Below are positions 9,413 through 40,616 of a stretch of DNA of 64,000 bases, piece after piece (within the stretch, counting starts at the first letter, position 1; the number at the start of each line of letters is the position of its first letter). The position numbers and the translations under genes are program-made. This DNA comes from an uncultured bacterium (GTDB taxonomy: Bacteria; Cyanobacteriota; Vampirovibrionia; Gastranaerophilales; Gastranaerophilaceae). The notes beneath the pieces were generated by a model. That model saw nothing but the letters and a program-made list of their open reading frames with translations, had not been told where the DNA came from and made no database searches. The stretch covers positions 6,320 to 70,319 of the forward strand of contig CACYVN010000005.1 in the NCBI GenBank assembly GCA_902777855.1. Direction: 5' to 3'.

Positions 9413-9461
9413 AAAAGACCCCATTTCTGAGGTCTTTTAATAGAATTGCTCCAGGCCAGAC
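9413..9461 (-). repeat. Duplicate of the tRNA-Leu T-loop-to-3'-end (15 nt) plus its terminator
   Basis: The 49 nt at 9413-9461 match 9607-9655 with 2 mismatches. Both mismatches keep the terminator hairpin paired. The tRNA-derived part is tgctccaggccagac (9447-9461). Confidence 0.85.
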
Positions 9462-9606
9462 CAAGCCGAGCAGAGCCACAAATTCATTAGTGAGAGCCGA
9501 CAATTATGCCTGCAATGAATATTCAGGCTAATTGGAGGCGGTGGCGTTTACTGCGAGGCGCAGTAGTCTGCCACGTTGCAGAAAATCCATTTTTACTGCA
9601 ACGTAT
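9462..9606 (-). ncRNA. Candidate structured RNA / cassette body between the two tRNA-Leu 3'-end copies
   Basis: 145 nt, GC-richer than its surroundings, no credible ORF. On the minus strand it has an 8-bp hairpin cgttgcag/ctgcaacg. It also has a nested helix gtggc..(actgcg-cct-cgcagt)..gccac and a 7-bp attcatt/aatgaat helix. It ends in a tRNA-like 3' end plus a terminator. I did not recognise its family. Confidence 0.25.
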
Positions 9607-9632
9607 AAAAGACCTCATTTTTGAGGTCTTTT
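9605..9632 (-). terminator. Intrinsic terminator of tRNA-Leu
   Basis: Minus strand: agacctca-aaaa-tgaggtct followed by a T-run. Confidence 0.75.
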
Positions 9633-9640
9633 AATAGAAT

Positions 9641-9727
9641 TGCTCCAGGCCAGACTTGAACTGGCACCGAGGTTGAGCCCCGATTGGATTTTAAGTCCAA
9701 CGCGTCTACCGATTCCGCCACTGGAGC
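9641..9727 (-). tRNA. tRNA-Leu (anticodon UAA), type II with long variable arm
   Basis: Minus strand: GCTCCAG TG GCG-GAATCGGTAGA-CGC G TTGGA CTTAAAA TCCAA (variable arm) GCCAG TTCAAGT CTGGC CTGGAGC A. The cloverleaf is fully paired. CCA is not encoded. Confidence 0.92.
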
Positions 9728-9769
9728 ACGGTTTGTGTTATTTAATTGTCAATTTTGTTCTGCTTGAGT

Positions 9770-9832
9770 GCGTCTACCGACCTCTCGAAAAACAATACTT
9801 AATTGTTTTTCTCGGCAGAGTGCCACTGGAGC
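9770..9832 (-). pseudogene. tRNA-Leu 5' fragment (acceptor 5' strand plus D-arm) with a 41-nt insertion in the D-loop
   Basis: GCTCCAGTGGC (9832-9822) and TCGGTAGACGC (9780-9770) are identical to the tRNA. The GGAA of the D-loop is replaced by 41 nt (9781-9821) containing a 10-bp hairpin. The upstream 25 nt (9833-9857) duplicate 9728-9752 with 2 mismatches. Confidence 0.7.
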
Positions 9833-9907
9833 ACGGTTTGTATTATTTAGTTGTCAAACTTGCCCAATCAAGCAACAAATAGATAGTATTATAAACATTC
9901 ACCGATG

Positions 9908-35514: not shown

Positions 35515-35543
35515 TTGACAATGAAATTTGTTCTTGTTAGGAT
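35515..35543 (+). promoter_or_regulatory. Putative sigma-70 promoter of tRNA-Lys
   Basis: TTGACA (35515-35520), 17-nt spacer, TAGGAT (35538-35543), about 40 nt upstream of the tRNA. Confidence 0.45.
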
Positions 35544-35585: not shown

Positions 35586-35658
35586 GCGCTTGTAGCTCAG
35601 CAGGTAGAGCACTCCCCTTTTAAGGGATAGGTCGCGCGTTCGAATCGCGCCAAGCGCA
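35586..35658 (+). tRNA. tRNA-Lys (anticodon UUU)
   Basis: GCGCTTG TA GCTC AGCAGGTA GAGC A CTCCC CTTTTAA GGGAT AGGTC GCGCG TTCGAAT CGCGC CAAGCGC A. 73 nt. CCA is not encoded. Confidence 0.92.
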
Positions 35659-35662
35659 TATT

Positions 35663-35694
35663 AAAAGAGATAACCTTTATGGTTATCTCTTTTA
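35663..35694 (+). terminator. Intrinsic terminator of tRNA-Lys
   Basis: agagataacc-tttat-ggttatctct 10-bp stem followed by a T-run. Confidence 0.8.
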
Positions 35695-35697
35695 ATA

Positions 35698-35880
35698 TAT
35701 GTTTGACGACGAATTGAATGCACTTGCGTTCGAGCGAGGGGCGAGCAGAGGGCGAAGCAGATTTTGCTTGTGGCTTGAAGCCACTTAAAGCAAAATGCGT
35801 AGTCCCGTTTATTGCGAGCCCCTCAAGACAATCGCGCCAAGCGCAAAATAAAAAGGATAGATTTTTCTATCCTTTTTATT
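35698..35880 (+). repeat. Cassette A: GC-rich body, then a 16-nt copy of the tRNA-Lys T-loop-to-3'-end (35830-35845), then its own terminator (35851-35880)
   Basis: AATCGCGCCAAGCGCA is identical to 35643-35658. Terminator aggatag-attttt-ctatcct plus a T-run. The body contains a 9+5-bp hairpin at 35761-35795. Confidence 0.8.
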
Positions 35881-36220
35881 TTTGTTTAGGTAGCGATGAG
35901 AACGCCGTTTTGCGTTCGGCGGATTTTGACAATAGTGAAGTGAGCGACAGGTTACAAAATAAAAAGTTTGCGAAAACATCAATCTGTCTGAAGGACAAGT
36001 GAGCAAACTTTTTCGTGTGGATTTGATATTGATATAAGCGAAAGGAACTATTATGGTGAAAGGTTTGATGGAGCGACTGTTTATGCGTTCAGCATAAACA
36101 AAGCGGAATGCTAAAACCTTGAACTGTCAAAATCCAAGACAATATATTAAAATTTGCGCGCCCCTCAAGACAATCGCGCCAAGCGCAAAATAAAAGAGGT
36201 CATAGTGACCTCTTTTATTT
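35881..36220 (+). repeat. Cassette B: about 290-nt body, then a 16-nt tRNA-Lys 3'-end copy (36172-36187), then its own terminator (36192-36220)
   Basis: The last roughly 40 nt (gcgcgcccctcaagacaatcgcgccaagcgcaaaataaaa) are nearly identical to the end of cassette A. The terminator stem differs (gaggtca-tag-tgacctc). Confidence 0.8.
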
Positions 36221-36367
36221 TGTGGATTTGCAAAGTTTCAAACGTAAATGTGCGTTCGGAACAAGCGAGGCAAAGCCGGAACGGTTTTGCTTGTGGAACA
36301 CTTGCCACTAAAGGCAAAACGTGGAGTGCTGTCGATGGCGAGCAAAGTAATTAATCGCGCCAAGCGA
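36221..36367 (+). repeat. Cassette C: body homologous to cassette A, then a 14/16-nt tRNA-Lys 3'-end copy (36353-36366), no terminator
   Basis: tgcgttcgg..agcgagg..gttttgcttgtgg..ccactaaaggcaaaac..gcgagc aligns with cassette A. It ends in aatcgcgccaagcgA. Confidence 0.75.
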
Positions 36368-36395
36368 TAATTTGGACAAAAATTGCACACTACAC

Positions 36396-36953
36396 CTATA
36401 TCTCAATATATTTTCTTGCACATTCAAGCATAGAATTTAAAAGTGCAGCGTTTGAAGTTAAATTCATTCCATTAATTTCAAGCACCTGTTTAATGCGATC
36501 TTCCCAGAGATTATAAATATCTGTTCTGTCTAAATCAAGTATTTCACCTATCATTAGCAATTCCTTTAAATCAATCGGCAAAGGATATGCCCCTCTTAGC
36601 ATATCGACAATATGTACACGTTTTTTTCTGGGGAATGATTTCAAAAAATTTACCACACTCATTTTTTTCTGCTTTAAGGTATTTTTTATAAATTCAACAG
36701 AATAATCTTTGAGTATAGGTTCCTGTGGTATCTTATATTCTTCAAATTCTTCAGGAGCAACATCCATAACCGTTGCAATACGTTCTAATGTACTTGAACG
36801 GGTAGAAAACGGTATTGTTTCATCTATCAAATTGTAGACATAAGACAGAGTCACTCCTATCATTTCTGCAAAATCTTTTTTATGCAGAGAATTTTTCTCC
36901 AAAAAATCAATAACCTTTTGTGAACTTTTTTCTTTAGTGGTTTCATTTTTCAT
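36396..36953 (-). CDS. XRE-type helix-turn-helix domain protein
   Basis: KKDFAEMIGVTLSYVYNLIDE HTH near the N-terminus. 185 aa with an unknown C-terminal domain. Confidence 0.65.
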   Translation of the reverse strand: MKNETTKEKSSQKVIDFLEKNSLHKKDFAEMIGVTLSYVYNLIDETIPFSTRSSTLERIATVMDVAPEEFEEYKIPQEPILKDYSVEFIKNTLKQKKMSVVNFLKSFPRKKRVHIVDMLRGAYPLPIDLKELLMIGEILDLDRTDIYNLWEDRIKQVLEINGMNLTSNAALLNSMLECARKYIEI

Positions 36954-39137: not shown

Positions 39138-40616
39138 TTAAATTTCCCCAATAATTTCTGTCTTAAATGATGCCCCGATTTCTTCCTGTGCTATAACTAC
39201 AATATTGTTTATATATAAACTTAATAATGTAAACAATATTTGTCGGTATTCAATGGATACCATGATTTTTGGCTCACAAATTCCGAGCTTCTTTGCTTTT
39301 CGCTTAATTTTATTAGCGAGTTTTTCTGCAAAATCCGCATCAATTTTTATTATCGACGCATCAGAATCATCACACCCTAACATTAACTCCGAATAGGTTT
39401 TGTCAGACAAGTCGAATAAACTTATAGTTTCACCATCTTCATTTGTATATTTTGAACAAATCTGACGCGATAGAGCTATACGAATTTTGTTTATAATATC
39501 AACCTTTGAGCCGTCATCTGCAAAATCATTTATTTTTTCAAAAATATAAGTGATATTTTTAATTGAAACATGTTCTTTTATGAGACAAACCATAATGTAC
39601 TTGATATCAGCGTACCCAAGCACTTCAGGAATAATGTTGTCTATAAGATACGGATTTTCTTTTTCAACAACATCAAGATATTTTTCAATATCTTCATAGT
39701 CAAGCAAATCTTCAACATGCTTTACCGCAATATATTCAAGCGCTTTTGCGATGTATTCTGAAGAAGTCAGACTACTCTGCCAAAAATCTTTTGCCTTGTC
39801 TTTTTCAACCCAGATAACCTTTTTACCTGTTATTTCATCTTCGGCATTTACAGAATTTTTAATTTTATGTTCTGTATGAAGCTCGTCAGCAAAAAACATT
39901 TTGTGTTCGGGATAAACAACTGCTCTGAAAACTTCCATTCCTCTTATTCTTATACTAAACTCACAAGGATTGAGATTTTCATCATCTTTAAATACAACCT
40001 TTGGTATGACATAGCCATATTTTTCTGTCAATTCAAGTCTTGATTTAACAGTCTGAGCAACAAGTTTTTCATCCTCATAACCGTCACGCTCACTGTCCAC
40101 GAACCCCAAAAGTTCTTCACTTAAATATATAGCAAGTTTTTCCTCATGAAGTTTTGAGTACATCAAATCAGGAGAGGTCGCTTTATTTAATTCTCCTTTT
40201 AAATCGTCCAAAGCCTTCAAACCTGAGGAGATTTTATCATTAAGTTTTTTTCGTGACACCGGAGCTTCACCATCAAGCTGAGCCTTAACCTGATTAATTT
40301 CATCACGTTTTTGCTTAATCTTTGATTGAATTTCAAGGCATTTTTCATATTCGGTCATTTTTGGAGAAAGCATTTTTTCCATCTGGCTTTTAAAATCCGA
40401 AATATTTATAATATCGTCAGAAGTAACTGCCGATTTCGCTTCACGCATAAATATACAGTTTAATTGCGCATTTTCATCTTCTTCCCCGCCGACTTCAGTC
40501 ATACTATAAAGTTCCCAGCCTTTCATCGACATTTCGTTAAGAAGATTCTGCAACTCCTGTGCATTATCAGCAGGACATGTTTTTATGACATATTCCATTC
40601 TGTTTTTACCGAACAT
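39138..40616 (-). CDS. Soluble protein: DUF4177-like N-terminus, coiled coil, FlhA/FHIPEP cytoplasmic (C-terminal) domain-like region
   Basis: N-terminus YVIKTCPADNAQELQNLLNEMSMKGWELYSM. Residues from about 170 to 490 align by eye with FlhA-C. The matching segments are LELTEKYGYVIPKVVFKDDENLNPCEFSIRIRGMEVFRAVV, VIWVEKDKA, HVEDLLDYEDIEKYLDVV, ADIKYIMVCLIKEHVSIKNITYIFEKI and EYRQILFTLL. No TM export-gate domain. Confidence 0.6.
   Translation of the reverse strand: MFGKNRMEYVIKTCPADNAQELQNLLNEMSMKGWELYSMTEVGGEEDENAQLNCIFMREAKSAVTSDDIINISDFKSQMEKMLSPKMTEYEKCLEIQSKIKQKRDEINQVKAQLDGEAPVSRKKLNDKISSGLKALDDLKGELNKATSPDLMYSKLHEEKLAIYLSEELLGFVDSERDGYEDEKLVAQTVKSRLELTEKYGYVIPKVVFKDDENLNPCEFSIRIRGMEVFRAVVYPEHKMFFADELHTEHKIKNSVNAEDEITGKKVIWVEKDKAKDFWQSSLTSSEYIAKALEYIAVKHVEDLLDYEDIEKYLDVVEKENPYLIDNIIPEVLGYADIKYIMVCLIKEHVSIKNITYIFEKINDFADDGSKVDIINKIRIALSRQICSKYTNEDGETISLFDLSDKTYSELMLGCDDSDASIIKIDADFAEKLANKIKRKAKKLGICEPKIMVSIEYRQILFTLLSLYINNIVVIAQEEIGASFKTEIIGEI

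Follow-up and report, generated by a model that had tools for sequence, protein, structure and literature searches.

Introduction

In Streptococcus thermophilus, integrase-less elements flanked by att sites reportedly accrete at tRNA genes, as put in the accretion-mobilisation model of the integrative and conjugative element (ICE) ICESt1 and of the cis-mobilisable elements (CIMEs). Among cyanobacterial elements, the tycheposons of Hackl et al. are said to be tRNA-targeting islands, kilobases long, with recombinase and replication genes, and the type V-K CRISPR-associated transposons (CASTs) of cyanobacteria home to tRNA genes with a short delocalised CRISPR RNA (crRNA). Here we describe three tandem non-coding units behind the tRNA-Lys(UUU) gene of an uncultured bacterium of the Gastranaerophilaceae (Cyanobacteriota, Vampirovibrionia), together with the family of cassettes to which they belong. 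The units lie in a stretch of 64,000 nucleotides (GenBank assembly GCA_902777855.1, contig CACYVN010000005.1, positions 6,320 to 70,319 of the forward strand), referred to as the window. Each unit carries a folded body, the rod, within a partial copy of the tRNA gene. The cassette family is apparently undescribed; literature searches found no description of such cassettes, which does not prove that none exists.

Organisation of the array behind tRNA-Lys

The tRNA-Lys(UUU) gene, called by both ARAGORN and Rfam on the plus strand at 35586-35658, has the T-arm GCGCG-TTCGAAT-CGCGC, with R57 at 35642 and A58 at 35643, and does not encode CCA. The 16-mer AATCGCGCCAAGCGCA occurs exactly at 35643, 35830 and 36172, and with 14 of 16 matches at 36353-36368. 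These four matches in the window, at up to three mismatches, compare with 0.31 expected, and four or more were seen in none of 100 shuffles. Alignment showed the 16-mer to consist of the last three T-loop nucleotides (AAT, nt 58-60), the 3' strand of the T-stem (CGCGC), the 3' strand of the acceptor (CAAGCGC) and the discriminator A73, thereby confirming what a first-pass annotation, made from the letters of the window, had stated about the gene, the repeat and its make-up. The same annotation had read a duplication that begins in the T-loop as the footprint of an integrase crossover. The 3'-end copies are real, but they are half the story, since the 5' half of the T-arm is likewise present in each body. 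This box, TGCGTTCG, is present in all three units 63-66 nt past the preceding 16-mer and equals the 5' half of the T-arm of tRNA-Lys itself (GCGCG-TTCG). Thus, each unit is a copy of tRNA nt ~50-76 with its body inserted between T-loop nucleotides 57 and 58. In each unit a small hairpin, H0, pairs the box to a strand upstream of it.

All parts of the array lie on the plus strand. Unit 1 begins with terminator 1 (35659..35697), a perfect hairpin with A and T tracts (-21.6 kcal/mol) that the co-variation test given below assigns to this unit. The leader and H0 follow (35698..35732), with TTGAATGC (35714-35721) paired to GCGTTCGA (35726-35733), and the 3' strand of H0 repeats the final nucleotide of the T-stem 5' strand together with T54-R57 (TTCG, 35729-35732). 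Rod 1 (AGCG...CAAGAC, 35733..35829) folds into P1 (GAGGGGC/GCCCCTC, with tandem G.A in GCGAGC/GCGAGC), P2 (GGG/CCC) and the P3 hairpin, and it scored 97.6 bits over 35713-35829 with R1, a covariance model that we built for the rods. Tail 1 (35830..35845) copies tRNA nt 58-73 exactly. Unit 2 comprises terminator 2 (35846..35882, -17.7 kcal/mol), whose hairpin GGATAGA/TCTATCC recurs in L165 and L213 (L-numbers are labels of individual compared loci), a leader and H0 (35883..35918; GAACGC at 35900-35905 paired to GCGTTC at 35912-35917, R57 at 35918), rod 2 (35919..36171) and tail 2 (36172..36187), again an exact copy of nt 58-73. Rod 2 is a long composite variant in which an outer stem, GGATTTTG...CAAAATCC AAGACA, precedes the 3' end of a rod of the unit-1 type (TTGCGCGCCCCTCAAGAC). 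Unit 3 consists of terminator 3 (36188..36222, -17.2 kcal/mol), a leader and H0 (36223..36258; AACGTA at 36241-36246 paired to TGCGTT at 36251-36256, R57 at 36258), rod 3 (36259..36352; 64.1 bits with R1 over 36237-36353), which is of the subtype GCGAGGC/GGCGAGC and ends in AGTAATT instead of CAAGAC, and tail 3 (36353..36368), the 14/16 copy (…GCGAT), which has no terminator behind it. Units 1 and 3 are homologous (74% identity), with similar P3 hairpins, and units 1 and 2 have a common 42-nt end.

The tRNA, tail 1 and tail 2 are each followed by a different perfect A-tract/hairpin/T-tract terminator, as had been proposed; a simple consensus scanner missed the three hairpins. The units measure 181-342 bp, and it also held true that their sole open reading frames (ORFs) cross the terminators. 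The bodies had been called clearly GC-richer than the genome (~30%), which applies to units 1 and 3 (50-53%) but not to unit 2 (34-42%), the flanks being at ~25-37%. A consensus scan gave a single good sigma-70-like match upstream of the whole array, the promoter-like site of tRNA-Lys (TTGACA, 17 nt, TAGGAT; 35515..35543, plus strand), and no comparable site in front of units 1 and 3; three weaker 9-of-12 matches fall inside rod 2. Three independently assembled contigs of the same strain (L001, L002 and L003, 99.9-100% identical) break off within the array, at 35770, 36072 and 36314, which suggests repeats or strain variation there.

Conservation of the rod fold

The rod fold is kept by compensatory change on the sense strand and is under selection. 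In an alignment of 29 rods with a structure set by hand, 79% of the cells paired and 16 of 24 pairs showed compensatory change, a score that none of 500 shuffles reached, and slid controls paired at only 23-41%. When 106 distinct rods were aligned to R1, in an alignment that leans towards the structure because it is fitted to the model, 81.9% of cells paired, 21 of 23 pairs covaried and the covariation score was 0.461, as against 0.145 for shuffled alignments and at most 0.122 for slid controls. MAFFT and RNAalifold alone recovered part of the fold only; the structure was set by hand, and then by the covariance model. The common plan of the alignment reads terminator, leader, H0 (GAGAACGC...GCGTTCG), (A)GCG, P1, AG, P2, 3x3 loop, P3, CGTTTAAY, P1', CAAGAC and tail. 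In this plan P1 has 7-11 bp with tandem G.A (GCGAGC/GCGAGC), P2 is GNNY paired to R(W)N'N'C, the 3x3 loop is GRA opposite GNA, and the P3 hairpin varies in length and sequence. The sense strand folded better than the antisense strand in 36 of 37 units, and G.U pairs were tolerated on it. All six H0 pairs covaried, the 5' strand of H0 shifting so as to stay complementary to each box.

A fold of this kind would also suit structured small RNA genes, read through from the tRNA promoter, ending at their own terminator and tailored to the tRNA as a T-arm mimic, decoy or sensor, with arrays arising by duplication. This is the main rival to the explanation that we prefer, was among the options of the first-pass annotation and is compatible with mobility, and we hold it to be less likely than not though in need of serious weighing. 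It draws on the sense strand being the folding strand with its G.U pairs, on the invariant tandem sheared G.A motifs and the T-loop-like 3' internal loop GUUUAAY, on an H0 5' strand that is antisense to the cognate T-arm with compensatory change at six of six pairs, on the terminators behind the tails of the first two units of the window, and on the presence of cassettes behind tRNA-Lys in most species of the order. The same array offers resistance to it: a strong terminator stands between the tRNA and each unit, and the units have no promoter-like site before them, bar the three weak matches inside rod 2. Nor does Rfam hold such an RNA. The first-pass annotation had suggested an Rfam search of the cassette region, which returned no family besides tRNAs: with Rfam 15 only the two tRNAs passed the gathering threshold, nothing else passed even at E<=10, and the best sub-threshold matches fall on terminator hairpins.

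Likeness of the rod to hammerhead, hairpin, twister and K-turn motifs was dropped by eye, the core motifs being absent and Rfam silent. The leader was also looked at as a possible copy of the tRNA. Leaders paired better with their own tails than in cross combinations (-6.7 vs -5.0 kcal/mol, p=0.0014), but as a full antisense copy of tRNA nt 59-68 the leader fared poorly, the fixed-register test giving 0.46 vs 0.425 shuffled. A degenerate copy of the tRNA-Lys 3' end (GCCAAG) was rejected because an identical leader occurs in cassettes of another tRNA.

Distribution of the family

Species-representative genomes were scanned for the tRNA-Lys 3' end followed after 50-80 nt by GCGTTCG. This gave 71 loci, 45 of them in low-GC metagenome-assembled genomes mostly named Candidatus Gastranaerophilales or Melainabacteria, so that the organism of the window can be placed as a gut melainabacterium. 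One or two further copies of the 16-mer stand behind tRNA-Lys in 36 of these 45, and most of the others carry a partial unit. Copies in the tRNA-Lys loci are typically spaced 175-193 nt apart (~183 nt), and the units of the family as a whole are ~175-245 bp long, typically ~190 bp, with a rod of ~100 nt. R1 found more than 100 rods, at the tRNA-Lys loci of species genomes and, in metagenomes, at ~20 other tRNA species, so that the proposed search for copies at other tRNA loci and in related genomes was borne out. A tRNA-independent rod pattern matched at least 120 loci in metagenomes, ~100 of the 120 listed being true rods by R1, and three rods in IMG/VR.

Subtypes are patchy, and close relatives differ in subtype or in the number of units, which speaks against small RNA genes, as does the frequency of truncated and degenerate copies. 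In the relative L031 an orthologue of unit 2 of the window (84% over 359 nt) lies directly behind tRNA-Lys and unit 1 is missing, L067 has a truncated rod only, and L101 has one unit of another subtype. L055 and L057 have identical tandem units.

Some rods (L158, L182, L230, L110, L125, L138 and L175) have no tRNA tail. Several of these tail-less rods sit in the loop of another hairpin, flanked by 7-8 bp inverted repeats, and others directly abut a second rod (…AAGACA|GCG…); unit 2 of the window is such a composite. Degenerate tails and truncated rods also exist. In about half of 20 species that keep synteny, the block of tRNA-Lys and cassettes is inverted relative to a conserved pair of a helix-turn-helix (HTH) gene and pth (L074, L033, L075, L057, L080 and others, compared with 35586-36953 of the window); the side of the HTH gene towards the block is always its 3' end. 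The HTH gene adjoining the array was considered as a partner and rejected, its position being mere synteny with pth and the block being inverted in about half of the species.

Match of the cassettes to the neighbouring tRNA

Among the matches listed, 50 rods lay 55-130 nt behind a called tRNA gene of the same strand, and all 50 were laid out alike. With few exceptions, L142 and L179 among them, the tail repeats the upstream tRNA from A58 onwards to the 3' end, and in nearly all the box equals the last T-stem nucleotide of that tRNA plus T54-R57. Since the tail begins at A58 and the box ends at R57, the rod, (A)GCG...CAAGAC, sits exactly between R57 and A58. It always follows T54-R57 (TTCR) and precedes A58, and its removal restores the tRNA sequence of the copy. 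The tRNAs with rods include those for Val, Leu (several), Ile, Met, Gly, Glu, Thr, Asp, Gln, Ser, His, Arg, Tyr and Ala, and a Lys-like tRNA with anticodon UUA. Thus, the tRNA-specific segments of the cassette, namely the tail, the H0 stem and part of the leader, match the upstream tRNA.

The Lys-like gene was called by ARAGORN as 'tRNA-Stop' in L165 (6681-6753) and L213 (1606-1678); it has anticodon UUA, a Lys-like body and the 3' end GAATCGCGCCAGGCGCA, and a rod cassette follows in each. This tRNA could be an ochre suppressor or a sign of recoding.

The rod was also considered as an intron of a full tRNA gene, as part of a split tRNA and as part of a transfer-messenger RNA (tmRNA), and all three were rejected. 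In 101 constructs spliced in silico, one tRNA was called, equal to the real upstream gene, and ARAGORN called no tmRNA; removal of the rod never yields a whole tRNA and, therefore, rods are not introns.

The rod and the terminator upstream of it are one co-inherited module, found almost unchanged at different tRNAs. In cassette pairs from different tRNAs, identity of the upstream terminator climbed with rod identity from 0.60 to 0.76 (Spearman 0.27, p=5e-19), and identity of the downstream terminator in the same pairs was flat, at 0.55 to 0.59 (rho 0.07). The rods of L116 (tRNA-Val) and L123 (tRNA-Ile) are ~97% identical, including one compensatory change in P1, and their upstream-terminator windows are ~85% identical with a near-identical hairpin, whereas the two cassettes differ in tail, leader and H0 stem nucleotides. 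For L055, R1 found rods elsewhere whose tail, AGTCTCGTCTCCCGCT(CCA), and box, ACGAGTTCG, correspond to the 3' end and the T-arm of another tRNA, and one of these rods is almost identical to rod 1 of the window in P3/P2' but has another P1. Co-inheritance of terminator and rod defines the unit as (tail +) terminator, leader, H0 and rod, so that the present terminator of the tRNA belongs to the nearest unit. For a small RNA gene this would be odd if the terminator merely ended the preceding gene.

A tail that is swapped with each tRNA while the scaffold is kept is also what a guide RNA would show. On such a view the rod would be the scaffold of a TnpB/IscB omega-RNA or reRNA, or of a CAST homing crRNA, and the 16-nt tail would be the guide that takes a nuclease or transposase, with its gene elsewhere, to tRNA 3' ends or phage attP mimics. 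The order of scaffold, target-identical tail of 16-19 nt and terminator agrees with it, the fixed TTCR before the target could act as a target-adjacent motif (TAM), and the tRNA homing of cyanobacterial type V-K CASTs may be counted in its favour. The guide, however, would match the essential tRNA gene of the cell itself, where TTCR likewise precedes the match; the left half of the target and its antisense are part of the cassette too, which is not so in guide RNAs; no omega-RNA or HEARO match was found in Rfam; and no TnpB, IscB, Cas12k or recurrent protein was found within 4 kb of the ~110 rod loci whose surroundings were analysed. We therefore consider a guide RNA very improbable.

Searches for protein partners and mobile elements

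The absence of an integrase at the array, already stated in the first-pass annotation, extends to the family. When ORFs within 4 kb of ~110 rods were clustered, there was no recurrent protein and no integrase, the largest family being present in 5 loci. A phmmer search with ISHp608 TnpA found nothing in 3,638 ORFs from ~1.8 Mb, which is a weak test. By blastn, which has little sensitivity for sequences so short and variable, no rods were found in 50,697 phage or 72,556 plasmid records. Scans of viral sequences gave nothing, whether they sought the P3 hairpin of rods 1 and 3 or the 16-mer together with TGCGTTCG, and no full-length relative was found in IMG/VR, INPHARED or PLSDB. The 16-mer alone gave mostly chance matches in GC-rich phages of IMG/VR, plus prophages of a relative. 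In rod-bearing contigs of IMG/VR (L109 and L103), rods adjoin a gene for an M15 peptidase of endolysin type, a reverse-transcriptase gene and a contig end. No integrase was seen beside the phage-like genes in the examined sequence of L103 and L109, and the attL of the L103 provirus, sought with the tRNA-Ala tail, was not on that contig.

Identical tRNA-Lys genes in relatives (L007, L011, L016/L025 and L022; IMG/VR sample 3300045988) harbour prophages whose 45-nt flanking repeat starts in the anticodon loop and stops with the 3' end of the tRNA; these prophages carry TGCTCACA arm repeats and no rod. They are a different integrase class that uses the same gene. In L093, L099 and L101 an attR of such a prophage type lies directly upstream of a rod cassette.

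Prophages in an identical tRNA-Lys (L011, L016/L025), rods beside the M15 peptidase and reverse-transcriptase genes and at a contig end (L109, L103), degenerate tails and truncated rods would all be at home if the units were ordinary att-site scars, left by normal-sized prophages or islands that had integrated at tRNA-Lys and were later deleted. Heavily decayed island scars had indeed been among the earlier suggestions. They are disfavoured because the bodies form a conserved family with compensatory covariation and invariant junction motifs at more than 100 loci; a covarying fold in that many loci and in ~20 tRNA contexts would be unexpected of scars. Furthermore, deletions would not stop at fixed boundaries, but unit length clusters at 175-193 nt; the tRNA-Lys prophages use the 45-nt repeat from the anticodon loop; and the phage and plasmid records yielded no rod, within the limits of blastn given above. 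Scars are thus highly unlikely.

In some cassettes the apical loop of H0 is occupied by an island, at 3729-9000 in L141 (5.3 kb) and 841-4500 in L234 (3.7 kb). The islands encode DNA methylases (N6/N4), a Tsp45I-type restriction enzyme, an McrA-like protein and an SfsA-like nuclease, and are flanked by direct repeats (15 nt in L234); about ten copies of AATTACAT lie at the right end of the L141 island. Searches of their unknown ORFs against Pfam, NCBIfam and PDB sequences gave no recognisable recombinase. Integrase-less restriction-modification islands also use the H0 loop of such cassettes as a landing site.

Origin and significance of the cassettes

Of the possibilities raised in the first-pass annotation, integrase-less miniature elements mobilised in trans gave the best fit, with no integrase, terminator co-variation, near-identical cassettes at different tRNAs and presence differences between close species, although the mobility itself is inferred. 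We propose, with a probability of about 45%, that the units are miniature, non-coding, integrase-less integrative cassettes mobilised in trans, whose conserved fold would be the recombination substrate and whose new units would enter next to the tRNA with their own terminator. The mobilising enzyme would be encoded elsewhere and, by analogy with the integron integrase acting on attC or with HUH and Xer systems acting on folded ends, may recognise a folded single strand. A cassette would enter at the T-loop or 3' end of the tRNA gene, and the incoming unit would supply or duplicate nt 58-76 and bring its own terminator. The tRNA would thereby stay intact and older units would be pushed downstream. 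With entry next to the tRNA, unit 1 of the window would be the newest, and tail 3, the degenerate fourth 16-mer, would be the oldest and the original end of the gene.

Several points weigh against this proposal. Mobility is deduced from the distribution of sequences only: the analysis turned up no mobilising enzyme, no excised form and no empty site within a single population. The likeness of the Val and Ile cassettes could also come from concerted evolution of resident cassettes by gene conversion, and tandem copies can arise by unequal crossing-over between the ~55-nt repeats. Retargeting of the tRNA-specific leader, H0 and box segments has no explanation in the model. A functional RNA would equally be expected to show strong covariation and conserved G.A motifs, the pair counts from the 106 rods lean towards the structure, and the pairing of leader and tail that a folded intermediate would use is weak in fixed register.

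A wider scheme, which we offer tentatively and would not expect to hold in full, is a structure-specified cassette system with T-loops as attachment points. In it, a trans-acting enzyme would read the folded strand (H0 and rod, with a three-way junction and G.A motifs) and insert the cassette in a way that heals the tRNA gene, cassettes would be retargetable to any tRNA by swapping four short segments, arrays would serve through the H0 loop as landing pads for defence islands, and a mirror-image D-loop 'head' cassette, described below, would belong to the same system.

Cassettes pile up behind ~20 kinds of tRNA gene in gut and rumen Melainabacteria. If mobile, they would be the smallest tRNA-targeting integrative elements known to us, recognised by shape and not by sequence and retargeted to ~20 tRNAs with almost no other change, in effect a natural programmable module for site-specific insertion. 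They may also help to explain how tRNA genes become island hot spots in gut Melainabacteria, with H0 as the host of integrase-less restriction-modification islands. If the cassettes are RNA genes, an uncultivated phylum would hold a novel and abundant class of structured RNAs matched to tRNAs. On either explanation the family is missing from Rfam and from the searched phage and plasmid collections, and it is common enough to break metagenome assemblies.

Other features of the window

The same architecture had been reported at the tRNA-Leu locus of the window, and this stands for the 3'-end duplication but not for the body. Behind tRNA-Leu(UAA) (9640-9728, minus strand) there is a 145-nt body (9462-9606) flanked by a 49-nt repeat that is 96% identical (9607-9655 vs 9413-9461) and comprises the last 14 nt of the tRNA plus the terminator. 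The body folds well, with z = -2.3 on the sense strand of the tRNA and -4.4 on the opposite strand, and the R1 search gave no match to it. L194 (5705-6120, reverse-strand coordinates) has the same arrangement at tRNA-Leu(UAA) with a ~60-nt repeat, and the two bodies do not align. The tRNA-Leu arrangement is therefore analogous and not of the same family, and may represent another class of tRNA-tail cassette.

Upstream of the same gene, at 9753-9871 on the minus strand, lies a 'head' cassette: a second copy of the promoter and of tRNA nt 1-11 is followed by CACTCTGCCGAG-hairpin-CGAGAGG in the place of the D-loop and then by the remainder of the D-arm. An upstream copy of nt 1-11 was present at 11 of 160 tRNAs examined, one of them an artefact at the end of a locus. 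The CACTCTGCCG element follows this copy in the window, L097, L167, L182 and L221 and is also recognisable in L148, where a rod sits in the loop of the 'head' element hairpin.

An ORF of the FHIPEP (FlhA) family at 39138-40616 on the minus strand (492 aa) matches profile positions 316-655 only, which is the cytoplasmic C-terminal part. The next ORF upstream is a PNP_UDP phosphorylase and, therefore, the membrane domain seems to be missing or encoded elsewhere.

Comparison with known systems

As in tRNA elements of the tyrosine-integrase type, direct repeats of a tRNA 3' segment are present, namely the 16-mer here and likewise at 50 other loci; the units of the window hold no integrase gene. 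CIMEs resemble the array in their tRNA 3'-end direct repeats, the lack of a recombination module, head-to-tail stacking at one tRNA and presumed mobilisation in trans. However, CIMEs are kilobases long, gene-bearing and deletion derivatives of ICEs, whereas units of the window type are ~190 bp and non-coding, and the rod cassettes have a covarying fold between T-loop nucleotides 57 and 58 and versions for ~20 tRNAs. Tycheposons share the cyanobacterial lineage and the arrays of partial tRNA repeats with cargo beside tRNA genes; we know of no structured rod described in them.

The small, non-autonomous and hairpin-rich palindrome-associated transposable elements (PATEs) of the IS200/IS605 group, and the REP doublets forming hairpins (REPINs) mobilised by REP-associated tyrosine transposases (RAYTs), are similar in their compensatory evolution. 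As with these elements, a fixed tetranucleotide, TTCR, immediately precedes the rod, whose ends show no small target duplication, and the loops of other hairpins can also hold rods (L158, L182, L230, L148). In contrast, the ends of the rod pair together and do not form separate left and right hairpins, P1 varies freely, copies are found almost only at tRNA flanks, and no TnpA or RAYT turned up in the weak search of ~1.8 Mb.

The attC sites of integrons and of clusters of attC sites lacking integron-integrases (CALINs) likewise conserve structure while sequence varies, in a rod with internal loops, a bulged base and a variable terminal hairpin; they too form arrays without a nearby integrase, with presumed proximal addition of new units and one folding strand. 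The rods, in contrast, have no paired R''/R' core sites (RYYYAAC/GTTRRRY), GTTTAAY being unpaired in an internal loop opposite AG, and there is no ORF between rod sites. Attachment is at the T-loop or 3' end of a tRNA, and each unit has tRNA-specific segments and a terminator.

The folded single-stranded attP of CTX-phi, used by host XerCD in an integrative mobile element exploiting Xer (IMEX), differs in that its target is dif and not a tRNA gene; in the cassettes, the rod forms a side branch at the junction and phage genes are absent. CTX-phi nevertheless provides the parallel of a recombinase-less element that is read through its fold, with inverted copies recreating a duplex site and tandem arrays at one site. 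Similarly, the H0 5' strand of the cassettes is antisense to the T-arm copy, and on the proposed model the fold would act as DNA.

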